Assembly (NCBI GenBank): GCA_029856155.1
Contig: JAHQWL010000023.1
Coordinates: 64,001 to 128,000, forward strand
Direction: 5' to 3'
Length of the DNA: 64,000 nucleotides
Origin: Promethearchaeia archaeon
Lineage (GTDB): Archaea; Asgardarchaeota; Lokiarchaeia; Sigyniarchaeales; SOKP01
The notes beneath the pieces were generated by a model. It did no database searches and was not told where the DNA came from. It worked only from the letters and a program-made list of their open reading frames with translations. The position numbers and the translations under genes were made by a program. Every line of letters begins with the position of its first letter. Position 1 is the stretch's first letter. This document shows positions 4,388 through 26,323 of the stretch, piece after piece.

Positions 4388-4569
4388 CTATAGGATTCAT
4401 AATAAAAAATAAAGGAAATCTTAATGATGTTGTCAAACGTTTAAGAGAAAAATTAATTAAATTGAAAGATATGTTATTGTTTGATATTTCAAGAAAGAAA
4501 GCTAGAAAGAGGCACAAAATTATACTATACTTTTATAAACAAATAAAACTTGAAGCAGATTTAGATTAA
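4388..4569 (+). pseudogene. Orphan diverged copy of the 3' end of the HD gene (2040-2212)
   Basis: Translates IGFIIKNKGNLNDVVKRLREKLIKLKDMLLFDIS..., colinear with IGFTVKNKGNIDDIIKHLEEKIIKLKDKLFLDIS...; no 5' part. Confidence 0.85.
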
Positions 4570-4701
4570 AAAAGGAATTAAAAATTAATCTTATTTTTTA
4601 AAAAAAATAATTTTTTTAATTATTAATTGCTATTTTTATCAAAGTATGAAAAAATTATAAAATAATATTAACATCGAATTGAAAGTTCAGTAAAAATAGA
4701 A

Positions 4702-6675
4702 ATGACTCATTTTAAAACTTATCCTTTTACTGCTATTGTAGGACAAGATCTTATGAAGCTTGCACTTATTCTAAACGCAATAAATCCAAAAATTGGTGGG
4801 CTCTTAATAAAAGGGACAAAAGGAACTGCAAAATCGACCACTGTAAGAGCTTTGGCAGATCTACTTCCTGAAATAAATATTATTAAAGATTGTCCATTTA
4901 ATTGTAACCCACACGATCTAAAAGAATCATGTCATGAATGTCAACATAAAATAATCGACAGAAAGTTGAAGAATAATGATATAGAATTTCGCAAAATGCG
5001 TGTTATTAATTTGCCTATAAATGCTACTGAGGATAGAGTAGTAGGGACGATTAACATTAAAAAGGCATTAGAACAGGGATTGAAAGCTTTAGAACCAGGG
5101 ATATTGGCAGAAGCAAATAGAAATATACTCTATATAGATGAAGTGAACCTACTTGCTGATAATGTAGCAGATGTATTATTGGATAGTGCAGCAATGGGAA
5201 TTAATATTATTGAACGAGAAGGTATTAGTATTCATCACCCTTCTAATTTTATCTTGGTGGGAACGATGAATCCTGAGGAAGGAAATTTGAGACCTCAGCT
5301 TTTGGATCGATTTGGATTAAGTGTAGAGGCAAAACCTATTTTAGATATCAATGAACGAGTTAAAATTATAAAATACGTTGAAGATTATCATATTGATCCT
5401 CATAAATTTCACGATAAGTTTGAAACTGAACAAAAATTATTAAGAGAGAAGATTGTTAAGGCTCGTGAAATTCTTAATAAAGTTAAAATTTCAGATGAAC
5501 AACTAGAAAACATTGCAAAATTATCTATTAAACTGGAAATTGATAGTCACCGCGCAGATATTGCTATAAATATAACAGCAAAAACTATTGCTGCTTTTCA
5601 TGGAAGAACAAACGTTTTAGATGAAGATATAAAAATAGCAGCAAGATTGGCATTAGCACATCGTTTAAGAAAACTTCCATTTGAAGAACAAAAAATAGAT
5701 GAAGATGATATCGAAAAGATGTTTGAAGAACAAGATAAGGAAGAAGCACAGAAACTGAATATAAATAATTCAGAACATCGAAATAATAAAGAAATTATAA
5801 ATCTAAAAGAGGAAATTTTCGGCATAGATACTAAGATATCTACAGATGGAATATTAGAAAAAAAAAGAATTGTAAAAGATATGAACACTTCTGGTCAAAG
5901 AATACTACACCCTACTCGTGATAAGAAGGGGAAATATATTGGTGGTCAAAAACCCAAAGATTTTAATTTTAGATCATCTTCGGATATTGCTGTTCTTGAA
6001 ACTATTAACAACGCCGCTTTAGAACCTGAAAATAGAAATGCTTTTAAAAATGGAGCAAAATTAGAGATTAAAAATGAACATATTCATATTAAGAAAAGAA
6101 TTGGAAAATCAAGCCATCTATTTGTTTTCTGTGTTGACACTTCGGGATCGATGGGAGCAAATGACAGAATGATAGCCGTTAAAGGAGTAATATTTTCTAT
6201 CCTTCAATCTAATTATGTATATCGCGATAAAGTCTCATTAGTTGTTTTTCGTGGAGAAGATGCAGAAGTTATTTTACCTCCCACTCGAAGTATTGATTTA
6301 GCATATAAATTGTTAAAGGAAATACCTACAGGAGGTACAACACCACTAATTAAAGGTTTAGTAAAAGCATTAGATATTGCTCTTGAAGAGAAAAGAAAGA
6401 AAACAGGATATATACCCTTGATCATTCTCATTTCTGATGCTAGAGGAAATGTATTTTATAAGGATGCTATAGACGATTTATTAAAAACTGGTAAAGAAAT
6501 TTCTAAAAATCTGATTGATATGATTATTATTGATACAGAAGGCTCGGATGTCAAATTAGAAATCAATAAAAAATTATCTGAATCAACAAATGCGAAATAT
6601 TATCATATTGATACCATGAATAAAGAAAAGGTGAATAAAATTCTGGGAATGGAAGGATTATTTGAAAATATCTAA
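4702..6675 (+). CDS. Magnesium/cobalt chelatase AAA+ subunit with C-terminal vWA domain (ChlI/ChlD-type)
   Basis: [18 protein letters not shown] Walker [25 protein letters not shown]; vWA DTSGSM and TGGTTPL. Confidence 0.92.
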
Positions 6676-19432: not shown

Positions 19433-20578
19433 TTAAAAGCATCGATGGATAACTTGGGGTCCCATCTCCTTGTATTCTCTTCGAGTAATCCACATTCTAT
19501 GAAATGTTTTTAAGGAACTTAAGATAGATCCTCCTATCCACACAGAATACATTCTTTCTGGAGGAGCGATTATCTTTACATCTATAGATTCAGCAACCTG
19601 TTCTTTTATTTCTCGAGTTAAACGCTCTTTAATTCCGGGAAACATTGTAGAACCGCCTGAAAGGACAATATTACTATAAAGATCTCTGCGTAAATCTACA
19701 TCACATTCAGATATTGCTCCTACCACTTCATCATCTAGAGGAGCTAATTCTTTACCAATCACAGAAGGATTAAATAAGCATTCTGGAGCCAAGAATCTTT
19801 CAATCCCTATTGTGATAGTTTCACCATCAGGAAGCATGAAATTCTTTGCCATACCAGCTACCTTATTTGAAAGTAAAATCTCTTTTTCAGGATCAATAGC
19901 AACATAGCAAAGCTTTTCTTTTATTTCTCTTACAATCTCTTTCTCAGCTGATGTATAAAAGGAATATCCATTTTGACGTAACAATCTCTGTAAATATGTT
20001 GTAACATCCCTTCCAGCAAGATCAATTCTCTGGATTGCATGACTTAAAGCAAATCCTTCAAATATTGGTACTATATGAGCTACTCCATCACCAATATCGA
20101 TTACACATCCTGTTGTTCGACCAGAAGCGTAAAGTGATAATACTGCTTGAGTTGCTATATAAAGCGCCGGAACATTAAATGTTTCGAACATTATTTCTGC
20201 TAGTTTTTCTCGATTTGATCGAGGATTCAATGGAGCTTCAGTTAATAATATTGGGTACTCAGATGGATCAATTCTTAAATCAGTATAAAATGTATAATGC
20301 CAAATTCTTTCCATTGCTGGCCAATCTTCCACAACTCCATGCTCAATAGGAAATTGTAAATTCATTATTCCTTTTAATTCCATCGCTTCTTCACCAATAT
20401 ACCATTCTCGACTATAATCCTTTACATCGGGCATTATGTTTCCATATTTTGGTTTACCAATCACAGTAGGAAACACTGAACGTGGCTGATCTTCTCCTCC
20501 AAATCCATTTTTTGATATTCCGGTCCCATTATCTATAACAATAGCTCTATTATTTCTAAAATCCCCGTTGACTGAAAT
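19433..20578 (-). CDS. Actin (Lokiactin-like), 381 aa with proposed ATT start
   Basis: Frame upstream of the track start encodes AIVIDNGTGISKNGFGGEDQPRSV; also FPIEHG, LLTEAPLNP, QAVLSLYASGRTTG, DIGDG, IKEKLCYVA, LPDG, NIVLSGGSTMFPG, APPER, WIGGSIL, C-terminal HRCF. Confidence 0.97.
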   Translation of the reverse strand: MSVNGDFRNNRAIVIDNGTGISKNGFGGEDQPRSVFPTVIGKPKYGNIMPDVKDYSREWYIGEEAMELKGIMNLQFPIEHGVVEDWPAMERIWHYTFYTDLRIDPSEYPILLTEAPLNPRSNREKLAEIMFETFNVPALYIATQAVLSLYASGRTTGCVIDIGDGVAHIVPIFEGFALSHAIQRIDLAGRDVTTYLQRLLRQNGYSFYTSAEKEIVREIKEKLCYVAIDPEKEILLSNKVAGMAKNFMLPDGETITIGIERFLAPECLFNPSVIGKELAPLDDEVVGAISECDVDLRRDLYSNIVLSGGSTMFPGIKERLTREIKEQVAESIDVKIIAPPERMYSVWIGGSILSSLKTFHRMWITRREYKEMGPQVIHRCF

Positions 20579-20912: not shown

Positions 20913-21977
20913 CTATTTTTTTAGCAGATTTATCAACTTTTTTACTATTAGGTCCCCCATTTCTCTTGTTGTTAGTGTCTTAAAAGTTTTATTCTCAATA
21001 TCTATGGTTCTTCCTTCGTTAAGAGCCTCTTCCACAGATTTTTCAATTAAATTTCCAATTTCTGGAGAATTAAATGATTCCTGCATCATTAATTTTACAC
21101 TTAAAATAGTACCTATTGGATTTGCAATATTTTTACCAGCAATATCAGGAGCCGAACCATGTATAGGTTCATACATAGACACATTTCCTGGATTTATATT
21201 TCCACTAGCGGCCATTCCTAAACTACCAATAAGAAAGGCGCCTTCATCACTAGTAATATCACCGAACATATTGCCTGTAACTACAGTTTCGTAAGAATAG
21301 GGAGCACGAATTAGCCATTGACAAAAAGCATCGATATAGACATCCTCTTTCTCGATATCAGGATAATCATTTCCAATTCTATGAAAGATCGAGCGCCAAA
21401 ATTGACTTGCTTTTATAACATTTGCTTTATCTACAGATGTTATTTTCTTATGGCCATTTTTCTTCGCAAATTCATAAGCATATCGTATAATTCGTTCACA
21501 CCCCTTTTTAGTATAACGCATTACACTTTCTGCAATATCTTCTGATATTTCTCCTATTCCTTTATATATTCCTTCTGTATTTTCTCTAATAATGGTGAAA
21601 TCAATACCTTTTCCTATAAATTCTTCTTTAAGTGGGCATCTATCACGTATATGATCATATAACTTAATTGGTCTTATATTTACATATAGATCTAAATCCT
21701 GTCTTATCTTTAAGATTGCAGATTCAACAACTCCGGGGGGTAAATCAGGAAGTCCAATAGCACCAAATAATAGAGAATCAGAATTTTTAATAATCTCAAA
21801 TGTCTTCTTAGGAAGACTTTCACCACATTTTTTCCATACATTCCCTCCCGCGGGGGCATTTTTAAATTCAAAATCAAAATCAGTATACTCAGAAATTGTC
21901 TTTAGAATCTTTATCCCTTCTTCTACTACTTCTAATCCACATCCATCACCATGAGTGATGGCTATTTTTTTTACCAT
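20913..21977 (-). CDS. leuB: 3-isopropylmalate dehydrogenase
   Basis: GDGCGLEV, IRENTEG, VDKANV, NMFGDITSD, YEPIHGSAPDIAGKNIANP; operon context. Confidence 0.9.
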   Translation of the reverse strand: MVKKIAITHGDGCGLEVVEEGIKILKTISEYTDFDFEFKNAPAGGNVWKKCGESLPKKTFEIIKNSDSLLFGAIGLPDLPPGVVESAILKIRQDLDLYVNIRPIKLYDHIRDRCPLKEEFIGKGIDFTIIRENTEGIYKGIGEISEDIAESVMRYTKKGCERIIRYAYEFAKKNGHKKITSVDKANVIKASQFWRSIFHRIGNDYPDIEKEDVYIDAFCQWLIRAPYSYETVVTGNMFGDITSDEGAFLIGSLGMAASGNINPGNVSMYEPIHGSAPDIAGKNIANPIGTILSVKLMMQESFNSPEIGNLIEKSVEEALNEGRTIDIENKTFKTLTTREMGDLIVKKLINLLKK

Positions 21978-22495
21978 TATGATTCCTCTTCTGAATTAGC
22001 AATTTGTTCTTTGGCAAAATTTACGAGCCCTTGAAGTTTAATTATTTTCTGTAAAAAGGCTGGAAACTCACTAAAAGAATAAGATTGGTTAGAAGTTATA
22101 TTTCTTATTGATCCTTTTCCAAAATCAATATCTAACAGATCTCCACTATTAAAAGCATTAGTATCAGGAAACTGAAGAATTGGAAGTCCGATATTAATTG
22201 CATTTCTGAAAAATATTCGTGCAAAACTGGGAGCTATAATTAATTCTATTCCCGAAGCTTTTAATGCGATTGGAGCTTGTTCTCGGCTAGATCCACAACC
22301 GAAATTTGAACCTGAGACGAGAATCGTTGCTTGAAGATCATTTTTATTCTGATGAAACTCAGGATCTAAATCTTCCATACAATGTTTTGCTAAAAATTGA
22401 GGATCTGTATCTACTAAGTATCGAGCAGGAATTATAAAATCGGTATTAATATTTTCTTGAGGATATTTAATTACTTTTCCTTTTATTTTTTTCAC
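21977..22495 (-). CDS. leuD: 3-isopropylmalate dehydratase small subunit
   Basis: [38 protein letters not shown]. Confidence 0.92.
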
Positions 22496-22512: not shown

Positions 22513-23787
22513 TTATATACTTTCTGGAGATGTAATAAAACCTTTTAAAGCAGAAGATGCAGCAATTACAGGGTTTGATAAATAAACTTCACTTTCCTTA
22601 TGCCCCATCCTTCCCATAAAATTTCTATTTGTCGTTGATATCGCTCTTTCACCAGGAGCAAGGATTCCCATATGTCCTCCTAAACATGGACCACAAGTGG
22701 GTGGAGATACAATCGCTCCCGCTTTAAGAAAAATTTCGATTAATCCTTCTTTAAGAGCATGAAATTGAATATTAGGAGTGCCTGGAATGATAATACATCT
22801 CACACTAGGGTGGATCTTGTTATTTTTCATTATTTTTGCCGCTATCCGTAAATCCTCCAATCGTCCGTTAGTGCAAGAACCAATTACAGCTTGATCAATT
22901 TCAAGATGTAAATTATGTACTTCAGATATAGGTTTTGTATTGCTTGGTGAGTGCGGAAGAGCTATTTGAGGTTCAATTTTAGAACAATCGATCTCAATGC
23001 TGTTATGATAATTCGCATTATGATCATTTTCATAAGTTTTATATTTCGAAATTCCTACATTTTTAAGATATTGTTTTGTAATTTTATCTGGAAAAATGAA
23101 CCCTGTTTTTGCCCCTGCTTCGATAGCCATATTACACATAGTAAAACGGTTTGCCATAGATAAGTTATCAATAATTTCTCCTGTAAACTCCATAACTTTA
23201 TACGTTGCCCCATCAACACCAATTTGACCAATTGTATATAAAATTAAATCTTTTCCTGAAACCCATTTATTCAACTGACCTGAATATATGAATCTTGTGG
23301 TTTTAGGTACTTGAAGCCAACATTTTCCGAGAACCATAGTCACACCTAAATCAGTTGAGCCAACACCAGTAGAGAACGCTCCTAATGCACCATATGTACA
23401 AGTATGAGAATCAGCACCAATAATTAATTCACTCGGAGATACTAGACCTTGTTCAGGAATAAGACAATGTTCAATTCCTACTTTTCCTACCTCAAAATAG
23501 TGTTGAATATGATACTTATTTGCAAAATCTCTCAAAATTTTACACTGTATTGCCGAAGCAATATCTTTATTTGGTGTAAAATGATCTGGTGTCAATATTA
23601 TCTTACTCGGATCAAAAACACTTCTTTCAGTTCCTTCAATAATTTTTTCGAAAACTTCTATAGCTTTTGGTGCAGTTATATCATTACCCAAACATTTATC
23701 AATATTTACTAAAACAAAATCTCCAGCAGAAAGATCCTTTTGATCGCAATGATCTCTTAAGATTTTTTCACTAATTGTTAAAACCAT
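22513..23787 (-). CDS. leuC: 3-isopropylmalate dehydratase large subunit
   Basis: GADSHTCTYGA, IGSCTNGR, CGPCLGG, STTNRNF. Confidence 0.92.
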   Translation of the reverse strand: MVLTISEKILRDHCDQKDLSAGDFVLVNIDKCLGNDITAPKAIEVFEKIIEGTERSVFDPSKIILTPDHFTPNKDIASAIQCKILRDFANKYHIQHYFEVGKVGIEHCLIPEQGLVSPSELIIGADSHTCTYGALGAFSTGVGSTDLGVTMVLGKCWLQVPKTTRFIYSGQLNKWVSGKDLILYTIGQIGVDGATYKVMEFTGEIIDNLSMANRFTMCNMAIEAGAKTGFIFPDKITKQYLKNVGISKYKTYENDHNANYHNSIEIDCSKIEPQIALPHSPSNTKPISEVHNLHLEIDQAVIGSCTNGRLEDLRIAAKIMKNNKIHPSVRCIIIPGTPNIQFHALKEGLIEIFLKAGAIVSPPTCGPCLGGHMGILAPGERAISTTNRNFMGRMGHKESEVYLSNPVIAASSALKGFITSPESI

Positions 23788-23821: not shown

Positions 23822-25444
23822 TTATTTTAATGATAGGCTTTTTTTCTTAACAATTAGATTTAGTCCTTTTATCAGAGATAAAACAGAACACAGAACAATA
23901 TCTTCATGAATCGCACTAGCTTTAACTACCATATTACTTTCAACATCCATGATTTCAATGGTAACATGCCCTAATGCTTCAGTTCCACCAGTAATAGCAT
24001 CAATTTGAAAATTTAAAAGTACAATCTTACTCATCGGTTTAAAGCATTTAACAATTGCTTTACAAGAAGCATCTACAGGACCTACTCCCGTTGCAGATGC
24101 TACTTTTTTTATTATATCTCCATTATTTTTGATATTTAATCGAACTGTTGATGTAGGTGTAACAGATCCAGTTAAAACAGTTAACTCCTCAAGCGTAACA
24201 TATTGTTCTTCTTTTGGTATTTCACCCAAAACATCTTTTACAATGGCTAAAAAATCCTCTTCAGAAACTTCATGCCCTTTATCACCAAGACTCTTTACAT
24301 GTTCCATTATTTTCGTAAATTGTTCTTCATTAGGTTTAATTCCTAAGTCATTAATTTTAGCCCTAAGAGCATGACCACCTGTATGTTTTCCAAGTTTTAT
24401 TGATTGCTTGATAATTGCTTCCACATTGTCAGTACGGTGAATTCCTATTAATTCTGGTGTAATGGGTTCATAAGTTCGTGCATGTTGAATCATCGCATGA
24501 GCATGAATACCTGCTTCATGAGCAAATGCATTCTGACCTATAAGGGGTTGTAATCGTCCAATTCTAACTTTTCCACCACAATAACTTTCTACTAATTTAG
24601 CTGTAGGAAATATTTTTGATGTTATAATATTCATAGGTATTTGGTATAAAGCATAAAGAGACATACATGTTTCTTCAAAAGATGCATTTCCTGCTCGTTC
24701 ACCCAAGCCCAAAATTGTTGTTTGAGCTTCAGAAGCACCATTTTCGAACCCAGCAATAGTATTTGCAACAGCAAGACCAAAATCATTATGACAATGGACT
24801 GCAATACGAATATTATTAGGTAAAGTTTCATAATTCTTCCGTATAATATATCCAAAAGCTACTGGAGAGATAGTACCTACTGTGTCAGGTATATTAATTC
24901 GTGTGGCTCCACTTTCAACGGCAGTTAGGTTAGCTTTAATTAAAAAGTCTAGATCTGATCTAGTTGCATCCTCAGCTGAAAATAATACTGTAGAATAATG
25001 CTCTTTAGCATAAGAGACGGTTTCTCTTATTCTTTCTATGACTTCATCTTTAGTTAATTGAAGTTTTTCTCTCATATGCAGTTCTGAAGTGGCACAAAAT
25101 AGATGTATACTATCCATATCTGCCTCTATAACTCTATCTATATCAGGTTTCGCTGTTCTAGCTAAACCCATCACTTCAGAATCTAAACCCATTTTTGCAA
25201 TATCTCTACAAGCTTCAAAATCACCCTGAGATGTTATAGGAAAACCCGCTTCTATAATATCGATTCCCAACTCATTAAGAGCTTGAGCAATAGATAGCTT
25301 TTCTTTATGAGTAAAACTTATACCTGGAGTTTGTTCCCCATCACGGAGCGTTGTATCAAAAAAATATGCTCTATCAGGGAGGATAAGTGCTCCTCTAATT
25401 TTTTCCATCATTTCGGAAACAGCAATATCGTTTTTACTTACCAT
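23822..25444 (-). CDS. leuA: 2-isopropylmalate synthase (LeuA/CimA family)
   Basis: DTTLRDGEQ, HCHNDFG, GERAGN, AFAHEAGIH, allosteric-domain GVGPVDA. Confidence 0.88.
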   Translation of the reverse strand: MVSKNDIAVSEMMEKIRGALILPDRAYFFDTTLRDGEQTPGISFTHKEKLSIAQALNELGIDIIEAGFPITSQGDFEACRDIAKMGLDSEVMGLARTAKPDIDRVIEADMDSIHLFCATSELHMREKLQLTKDEVIERIRETVSYAKEHYSTVLFSAEDATRSDLDFLIKANLTAVESGATRINIPDTVGTISPVAFGYIIRKNYETLPNNIRIAVHCHNDFGLAVANTIAGFENGASEAQTTILGLGERAGNASFEETCMSLYALYQIPMNIITSKIFPTAKLVESYCGGKVRIGRLQPLIGQNAFAHEAGIHAHAMIQHARTYEPITPELIGIHRTDNVEAIIKQSIKLGKHTGGHALRAKINDLGIKPNEEQFTKIMEHVKSLGDKGHEVSEEDFLAIVKDVLGEIPKEEQYVTLEELTVLTGSVTPTSTVRLNIKNNGDIIKKVASATGVGPVDASCKAIVKCFKPMSKIVLLNFQIDAITGGTEALGHVTIEIMDVESNMVVKASAIHEDIVLCSVLSLIKGLNLIVKKKSLSLK

Positions 25445-25531
25445 GTTTTTAACCTTTTATAATTTTATTTAAAATATATAGCCCTTATACTTCCAAGAAG
25501 AAAAATACGCTCTAGAAAGGAATAGGGCGCT

Positions 25532-25633
25532 CTATAATAATAAGAGTAATAACAAACTCATTAATTCTAAAGGAAATAAAATCCTCAAACTTATTTTATA
25601 ATTAGAAATAAGCAGACTCTGAGTAAATTTCAT
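25532..25633 (-). CDS. Putative leu operon leader peptide (33 aa, ends in seven Leu)
   Basis: MKFTQSLLISNYKISLRILFPLELMSLLLLLLL*; terminal codons TTG TTA TTA CTC TTA TTA TTA TAG; 87 nt upstream of leuA on the same strand. Confidence 0.75.
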   Translation of the reverse strand: MKFTQSLLISNYKISLRILFPLELMSLLLLLLL

Positions 25634-25909
25634 TTTTTCTAATCCTATTAGAATTTATGATTATAAAAATTAATTGATTATAACCTTATAAATTTTTTTC
25701 TTACTCCGTTTACAGTCTTTGTAGAAGAAGTTTGAAATTCTTTTGAAAAAATTCTTACTATTAGAGAATTGCCAAAAATCCAAGTTTAGATCCAGAGATT
25801 GATGTTGAAATTCAAAAATTATTAAATGAATTTTCAAATAAAGACTCAAATCAAATAAATGAAAAGAATAAGGAATGATAAAAAATAGAGAGAACGTTTT
25901 TAAATCAAT

Positions 25910-26323
25910 TTATAATGAAATTAACGATGAGATTTGTTTGTACTGATCTTCTGAGACTTTATCTTTTACTACTTCAAAAAGTTCTAGAAGCACATTGTCA
26001 GGAGCTCCTGCCATCACATACCTTAATGGACCGAAACTTTTTATTTCTTTTCTAAATTGAAAGCCCTTTTTTTTCATGTGTGCTACAAGTGCTTCCAAAT
26101 TGTCAGTTTCAATCCCTAAATGATGAATCGCTCCACGCTCTTGGTCCTTAGGTGGTTGATCATAAAAATTAATTTTTGAGGTTCCAATTGTTATCATTAC
26201 ATTTCTAGCTCCTGCCATTTTTAAATCAAATAAAACTTTTGCATCAAACATATCTTTATAAAATTTAATGCTTTCATCAAGATTCGAAGCAAAGAGATGG
26301 GCATGATGGAGGGAAGTTTTCAT
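25910..26323 (-). CDS. VOC/glyoxalase/bleomycin-resistance family protein
   Basis: LHHAHL...SIKFYKDMF...IHHLGI...APDNVLLELF. Confidence 0.88.
   Translation of the reverse strand: MKTSLHHAHLFASNLDESIKFYKDMFDAKVLFDLKMAGARNVMITIGTSKINFYDQPPKDQERGAIHHLGIETDNLEALVAHMKKKGFQFRKEIKSFGPLRYVMAGAPDNVLLELFEVVKDKVSEDQYKQISSLISL

Follow-up and report, generated by a model that had tools for sequence, protein, structure and literature searches.

The leu operon and its leader ORF

The window analysed here (64,000 nucleotides; contig C26) belongs to a 4.1-Mb MAG with 30% G+C, whose relatives are MAGs of the Promethearchaeota (Asgard archaea). Of the 23 public sequencing runs listed for this DNA, all are metagenomes from sediment, marsh or soil, and none is an RNA run. 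The minus strand carries, in this order, a leader ORF, a hairpin of 48 nt and the genes leuA-leuC-leuD-leuB. The first of these, leuA (23822..25444), encodes a 2-isopropylmalate synthase of 540 aa (NCBIfam model NF002085, 560 bits, above the cut-off). It is followed by leuC (22513..23787), encoding the large subunit of 3-isopropylmalate dehydratase (TIGR02083, 650 bits, above the cut-off), leuD (21977..22495), encoding the small subunit of the dehydratase (TIGR02087, above the cut-off; TIGR02084, 204 bits), and leuB (20913..21977), encoding 3-isopropylmalate dehydrogenase, whose match to TIGR00169 (329 bits) lies just below the cut-off of this NCBIfam model. Just 3' of the operon, on the same strand, there is a gene for an actin-like protein of 347 aa (19433-20476), with weak matches to the syringactin, BeeR, crenactin and MamK models.

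The leader ORF (P0001; 25532..25633, minus strand) starts with ATG and comprises 33 codons and a TAG stop. A preliminary description of this DNA had reported 13 leucine codons in it, seven of them consecutive and placed directly before the stop, and this was confirmed on the minus strand (25633..25532). The final seven codons (TTG TTA TTA CTC TTA TTA TTA; 25535..25555) are predicted to lie in a single-stranded linker between two RNA helices, termed P1 and P2. The internal ATG at 25561, pointed out in the same description as a second possible start, is present in the source genome, but the closest relatives carry TTG at this place, so that it is not a conserved start codon.

Runs of at least seven leucines are rare: the six-frame translation of the whole 4.1-Mb genome contains just 8, of which 2 adjoin a stop codon, one of them being the leader. 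The leader also took rank 1 when the whole genome was scanned for short ORFs that contain amino-acid runs and lie 5' of long ORFs, and the remaining run-bearing short ORFs lie 5' of unrelated genes. The analogous leaders that had been envisaged for other operons were not encountered in the source genome, where nothing comparable precedes the four ilvB-like genes, ilvC, the two ilvD genes or a second HMGL-like gene. An Rfam search (cmscan) of positions 25300-26000, with E-values of up to 10, gave five chance-level matches of the snoRNA type, and neither Leu_leader (RF00512) nor any other leader family.

Conservation of the leader in Promethearchaeota

Orthologues of leuA were gathered from 81 of the 161 genomes of the class and their upstream DNA was retrieved, which provided 78 loci with usable upstream sequence. 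The Leu-run leader occurs in the same frame and position at 67 of these, in members of at least 15 promethearchaeotal genera that belong to two families, and the proposal made in the preliminary description, which depended on such in-frame conservation, therefore survives. At 66 of the 78 loci a short ORF with a terminal Leu run is located 82-99 nt before the leuA start, and one more locus carries a degenerate run. Six seemingly longer gaps between leader and leuA are probably due to mis-called leuA starts; one of these loci has a GTG start at the usual distance. The leader is carried by every operon-bearing genus of family f1 and by most of family f2, and is missing from the five other families of the class, which have a higher G+C content. 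Among the carriers is locus L084 of the single-contig genome G078 (6.0 Mb). LeuA identity among the carriers falls to about 60%. Judged by this comparison of sequences, the presence of a Leu-run leader before leuA is not a matter of chance.

A recent import of the operon from bacteria was considered and rejected: the nearest LeuA relatives outside the class are those of other archaea (42-47% identity).

Several loci show peculiarities of their own. Two leuA loci of family f5 (L087 and L088) have a stable hairpin (z of -3 to -4) about 90-110 nt before leuA, and no Leu-run ORF by the criterion used. At locus L085 (genome G077), which has no leader, a unit of about 30 nt is repeated in tandem at least five times directly 5' of leuA, beside a masked N stretch. 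At locus L009 (genome G039) three Leu runs occur in a longer, leader-like ORF, which lies about 360-440 nt upstream of the called leuA start and adjoins an assembly gap and a duplicated 5' end of leuA; this layout probably reflects faulty assembly around a true leader.

Two conserved helices flank the leucine run

The preliminary description had also noted a stem directly after the leader stop. This hairpin, P2, is present in the predicted minimum free energy (MFE) structure at 25528..25481 (48 nt, minus strand), starting 3 nt past the stop, and is conserved with compensatory changes. It has a G+C-rich base, a pyrimidine-rich 5' arm and a purine-rich 3' arm, with a U-rich tract in its apical part. 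When a 60-nt window was slid along 57 loci, only the segment from +0 to +60 past the stop was structured (mean z -3.85, with 84% of the loci below -2), the other windows being near zero. The geometry of P2 is kept across the relatives, where it begins 0-6 nt after the stop and is 53±4 nt long, and the sequences of its arms differ between clades. In a sub-family of 18 sequences 9 of the 13 pairs showed compensatory changes, a value reached in 0 of 500 shuffles, and the arms paired more strongly with their cognate partners (-19.5 kcal/mol) than with non-cognate ones (-11.9 kcal/mol). Orthologous loci that lack the leader mostly lack the hairpin as well. A covariance model built from the P2 sub-family recovered mainly this sub-family itself and reverse-strand matches, and the resulting alignment (A4) was not used.

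The second helix, P1, is absent from the preliminary description and was found by an all-against-all pairing test of segments. Its 5' strand, as predicted with RNAduplex and MFE folding, lies in the 5'UTR (25636..25661, with the core at 25655..25643) and includes the SD-like AGGA of the leader (25646..25643). The 3' strand, obtained by the same means, lies within the ORF, in the codons for F-P-L-E-L (25557..25582, core at 25574..25563), and ends about 23 nt before the stop. Across the relatives P1 spans positions -32 to -3 of the leader AUG, including the SD-like AGG. The distance from the end of its 3' strand to the stop codon has a median of 22 nt, and the unpaired stretch between the two helices, in which the Leu run lies, has a median length of 26 nt (IQR 22-33).

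The duplex energy between the 35 nt preceding the leader ATG and the segment of the ORF before the run was -13.4 kcal/mol for cognate and -9.0 kcal/mol for non-cognate combinations (p = 2e-9, a value that overstates significance, as do the other p-values, because related genomes are not independent). The pair counts in alignment A5 exceeded those of all 500 shuffles and of all slid controls, and the MFE folds of many clades show P1 with differing sequences. By these measures of sequence change P1 does covary. RNAalifold gave no consensus on plain MAFFT alignments of the whole region or of the 5'UTR plus ORF, in which the arms are out of register; for this reason P2 was tested on the sub-family alignment and P1 with a hand-derived column structure on a plain alignment. 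Since P1 hides the SD of the leader, the latter may be translated rarely.

Promoter and Shine-Dalgarno signals

A candidate promoter of the leader-leuACDB unit was recognized by its motifs at 25684..25700 (minus strand), where an A-rich, BRE-like stretch is accompanied by the TATA-like box TTTATAAGG (25692..25684), located 51-59 nt before the leader ATG. TATA-like 7-8-mers fall into two bins, at -60 to -53 from this ATG, with 36 matches among 53 distinct relatives. No TATA-like word at a fixed position was found in the relatives in the spacer preceding leuA, and such words are few there. It is thus probable, as far as these conserved motifs indicate, that one transcript begins about 30 nt before the leader ATG, from the BRE/TATA-like box.

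The spacer between P2 and leuA (25445..25480, minus strand) is A-rich and predicted to be unstructured; over 57 loci it is 37.7±2.4 nt long and contains 54% A. It carries an SD-like AGGT (25455..25452). The relatives show an AGG consensus at -12 to -10 of leuA, with G at -11 and at -10 in 72-74% of the loci. In the source genome SD-like words are common before operon-internal genes (with a peak at -17 to -10) and rare before first genes. As these words mark operon-internal genes, the SD of leuA fits a transcript that starts upstream. An internal promoter giving a leaderless leuA mRNA from within the spacer is disfavoured, because TATA-like words are few and unfixed there, while the AGG at -12 to -10 is fixed.

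The weakness of SD-like words before the first cistrons of the source genome suggests that many of them are leaderless. Upstream of the leu locus, a T6 tract (25875-25880, minus strand) follows a VOC-family gene (26323..25910), the last gene of the preceding operon, about 180 nt before the TATA-like box of the leader. Such a tract fits a separate leader-leuACDB transcription unit.

Selection on the leucine codons

Leucine is the commonest residue type in this genome and TTA accounts for half of all leucine codons, so that Leu-rich frames are easier to obtain at 30% G+C. The preliminary description had argued for selection on leucine rather than a plain repeat, and the variation observed among the relatives bears this out. 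Leucine makes up 88-97% of the residues in the last four codons and 45-78% in the eight preceding ones. Where the codon is not TTA, it is a leucine synonym in 19 of 21 cases at position -4 and in 14 of 15 at position -3. Of the 9 codons that differ from TTA by one base, just 2 also encode leucine. The variation of the run is almost wholly Leu-synonymous, including T/C changes at the first position, and all three kinds of stop codon terminate the leaders. Taken together, the conservation in frame, the synonymous variation and the use of all three stops argue for selection on the encoded amino acid.

The same data bear on the possibility that the ORF is not translated at all and belongs to a structured 5'UTR or a small RNA, the Leu run being a U/A-rich linker between helices. 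P1 does sequester the SD and start region of the leader, and TTA repeats form easily in an A+T-rich genome. A linker of this kind would not explain why the run varies almost entirely among leucine codons, nor why about 60 diverged sequences, whose composition leads one to expect about 9% stop triplets (our own estimate), keep an open frame of about 35 codons that begins at an ATG equipped with an SD-like AGG and closes right behind the run. The linkage to leuA, moreover, extends across two families and to the G+C-rich Altiarchaeota described below. We regard an untranslated element as very improbable.

Even less credible is the view that the ORF has no sensory role and specifies a small hydrophobic protein active in its own right, which would be co-expressed with leuA. 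The conserved N-terminus (M-K-x-L-Q) and internal S-L-G/E-L motif of the leader peptides could be taken to point to such a protein, but the internal motif is encoded where the 3' strand of P1 lies, so that RNA pairing accounts for its conservation. Elsewhere the peptide diverges freely, only its leucine content being kept, and its length ranges from 26 to 42 codons.

Search for a terminator and competing helices

The preliminary description proposed attenuation-like control. In a classical transcription attenuator the hairpin and U-tract would form a terminator and a stalled ribosome would block its formation. Some features of the locus agree with this: the hairpin encloses a run of five U in the source genome, its base can be reached by a ribosome that occupies the final Leu codon or the stop codon, and P1 would confine sensing to the first ribosome, in the manner of a trp leader. 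Termination at the enclosed U-tract did not hold up, for several reasons. Runs of at least five T are present within the hairpin at 28% of the loci and within the spacer at 5%; between the leader stop and the leuA ATG they occur at 32% of the loci, as against 45% of ordinary upstream regions and 52% of the 60-nt segments past ordinary stops. A scan for terminators of the bacterial type left P2 unflagged. At ordinary gene ends of the source genome oligo-T is enriched within 20 nt of the stop, and hairpins give no signal. For archaeal RNA polymerase, no terminators of the hairpin type are known (PMC8116511).

Nor did the folding of alternative structures reveal an antiterminator. Mutually exclusive helices were not found among 28 segment pairs: a clear advantage of cognate over non-cognate combinations was confined to P2 and to P1, the latter including an inner extension (A1:A2). 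The alternative pairings U:C, A2:D, B:C, B:E, D:E and D:F did not differ between the two, and no antiterminator pairing covaries. Finally, a ribosome stalled at most of the Leu codons would spare the hairpin, and a terminator at this place would shut down the operon under starvation. With no competing helices, no conserved oligo-U and terminators of the genome's own that lack hairpins, the element is not a classical attenuator of the bacterial design, and we give the corresponding mechanism little credence.

Control at the level of leuA translation could take two forms. In one, the free RNA of the Leu run, or P2, lowers the accessibility of the leuA RBS and a stalled ribosome relieves this effect; in the other, ribosomes that finish the leader melt P2 and are handed over its base to the leuA start (by a shunt over a short ORF and stem, or by reinitiation), with P1 gating their entry. 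Both draw on the position of the stop 0-6 nt before a stable stem, the short spacer of constant length behind it, the purine-rich, SD-like 3' arm of P2 and the lack of a conserved terminator. In addition, when a footprint is imposed on the Leu run, the energy predicted for opening the leuA RBS falls by 1.25-1.4 kcal/mol (37 C), while a footprint early in the leader changes nothing. This effect of about 1.3 kcal/mol comes from base composition: pairing between the Leu run and the spacer was no better in cognate than in non-cognate combinations and was weaker than with shuffled spacers, and sequestration of the leuA RBS by the Leu run was rejected on these grounds. Furthermore, among the segment pairs tested no covarying helix involves the leuA RBS, and P2 does not extend into the SD, its end being 38 nt from the ATG. 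Positive coupling to the completion of the leader would, in turn, raise leuA expression when leucine is plentiful, unless gating by P1 reverses the sign. We therefore consider translational control, in its two forms together, unlikely, if worth keeping in view.

A ribosome-position model

The comparative and thermodynamic evidence makes us fairly confident that the leader is part of a ribosome-dependent leucine sensor acting in cis on leuACDB. It appears to be a leader peptide of the attenuator kind, built unlike the bacterial classics, and the best reading of the signal is the supply of leucyl-tRNA, sensed through the position of the ribosome.

A ribosome covers about 15 nt on either side of its P site. 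The last 7-9 codons, most of them for leucine, are predicted to occupy about 26 nt of unpaired RNA, which is close to the size of one footprint. Following this standard footprint geometry, a ribosome awaiting Leu-tRNA early or midway in the run would cover the 3' strand of P1, leaving P1 open, the leader SD exposed and P2 folded. When the ribosome has reached the last Leu codon or the stop, P1 would close behind it and the G+C-rich base of P2 would melt. Ribosome position would in this way toggle two static helices, rather than select one of two competing structures.

The sign of the regulation is assumed from physiology, since neither a conserved terminator nor a sequestered leuA RBS links the position of the ribosome to leuA. 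If starvation raises expression, folded P2 must be the permissive state, and several simple read-outs, among them translational coupling and a hairpin terminator, would have the wrong sign. Termination in archaea occurs at poly(U) or through the action of aCPSF1/FttA on nascent RNA (PMC8116511). We tentatively prefer a read-out in which P2 protects against factor-dependent termination: folded P2 would keep the untranslated gap short and structured, so that transcription runs on into leuA, whereas a terminating ribosome that holds P2 open would bare about 60 nt of RNA to polarity termination or cleavage of the FttA/aCPSF1 type. P1 would confine the reading to the first, co-transcriptional ribosome. 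To our knowledge, FttA loading has no known sequence signature. A stabilization of the mRNA by stalled ribosomes, as another possible read-out, seems decidedly unlikely.

Comparison with known systems

A full-text search of a paper library found no report of leader-peptide control or ribosome-mediated attenuation in any archaeon. Among the closest parallels, the enterobacterial leuL (RF00512), trp, his, phe, thr and ilv leaders likewise consist of a short ORF rich in codons for the end product, placed before the first biosynthetic gene, and in the classical attenuators (leuL, trpL) the RNA helices are also within reach of the translating ribosome and a helix can stop further translation of the leader. 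The Asgard element differs in being archaeal, in having its run at the extreme C-terminus, in relying on two static helices where the classics have three competing ones, and in lacking a hairpin-plus-U terminator and any Rfam match. Its sensing half would work like that of bacterial leader-peptide attenuators, but it does not show the structures that define these (competing helices, an intrinsic terminator, agreement with the Rfam models).

Leu-rich attenuator peptides have also been described for the ilv-leu operon of Staphylococcus aureus (PMC5794164) and for the ilvBNC and leuA leaders of Corynebacterium (PMC1262725, PMC11857589). These Gram-positive leaders resemble the Asgard one in that a Leu-rich peptide precedes branched-chain amino-acid genes. 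They differ in using a bacterial terminator and antiterminator, neither of which was found in the Asgard element, and the ilv genes of the source genome have no leaders.

Three further systems resemble the element in part. In the tna operon of E. coli, free tryptophan is sensed through the nascent TnaC peptide and Rho is blocked. In common with what is proposed for the Asgard leader, access of a termination factor to the RNA adjoining the stop depends on a ribosome held where the leader ORF ends, with no switch between competing helices. The Asgard geometry (a stop 0-6 nt before P2, then a naked spacer of 38 nt) is compatible with gating of this type. The Asgard signal would differ in being the supply of Leu-tRNA, the factor, if any, would be FttA/aCPSF1, and in the model that we prefer it is the finishing ribosome, not a stalled one, that permits termination.

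In translational attenuation of the ermC/cat type, stalling of a ribosome within the leader ORF disrupts a helix in which an SD is concealed, and the opening of P1 would be a similar event. The SD hidden in the Asgard element is that of the leader itself, whereas it is that of the downstream gene in the ermC-type systems, of which the ErmCL leader is an example (PMC5499644), and the leuA RBS lies in the unstructured spacer.

The 35S leader of cauliflower mosaic virus supports a ribosome shunt dependent on a short ORF and a stem, which is a mechanism of eukaryotic scanning. The likeness is one of layout only: a short ORF ends a few nucleotides before the base of a stable stem, which is followed by an unstructured landing region. 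Apart from the dependence of the viral mechanism on eukaryotic scanning, a shunt alone would give the opposite sign of regulation.

Leaders in Altiarchaeota and wider implications

Leaders of a related design were found outside the Promethearchaeota. At the leuA loci L174, L177, L182 and L183 of Altiarchaeota/Altiarchaeales, ORFs of 30-38 codons are located about 120-220 nt before the LeuA match. Each contains a run of 5-7 leucines. Between the run and the stop lie three or four further codons (R-L-R-A/E or R-Q-R-A), and a G+C-rich hairpin extends over the end of the ORF, including its stop. The genomes concerned have 48-54% G+C, and the occurrence of leaders at about 53% G+C indicates that the design is not an artefact of A+T-richness. 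Altiarchaeota look like an independent second lineage of leuA leaders.

It is, in our judgement, probable that the Asgard archaea and, independently, Altiarchaeota gauge leucyl-tRNA by means of a leader ribosome that toggles two non-competing helices, one hiding the leader's own SD and the other abutting the stop. Ribosome-mediated attenuation is a textbook bacterial mechanism, which needs coupled transcription and translation. The polymerase and termination factors of archaea are of the eukaryotic type. If the proposed model is true, it would represent a kind of archaeal attenuation working without hairpin terminators and reporting through transcription-translation coupling (polarity of the FttA type) or through the hand-over of ribosomes across a short ORF and stem. 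As the element has neither a terminator nor competing helices, working it out could reveal a new kind of read-out. Its presence in about 65 Asgard genomes, with two covarying helices and a fixed geometry, makes it a natural test object for signalling by ribosome position in archaea. It would also mean that leucine synthesis in these sediment archaea is under their own control, a point relevant to the supposition that they rely on partners to supply amino acids.

A run of a different amino acid was observed at locus L095 (genome G000, contig C82, minus strand), where an 18-codon ORF with five consecutive Trp codons lies about 119 nt 5' of an ORF (4400-4891, minus strand) whose product of 163 aa belongs to no Pfam family; the Trp run may be a simple TGG repeat or something else.
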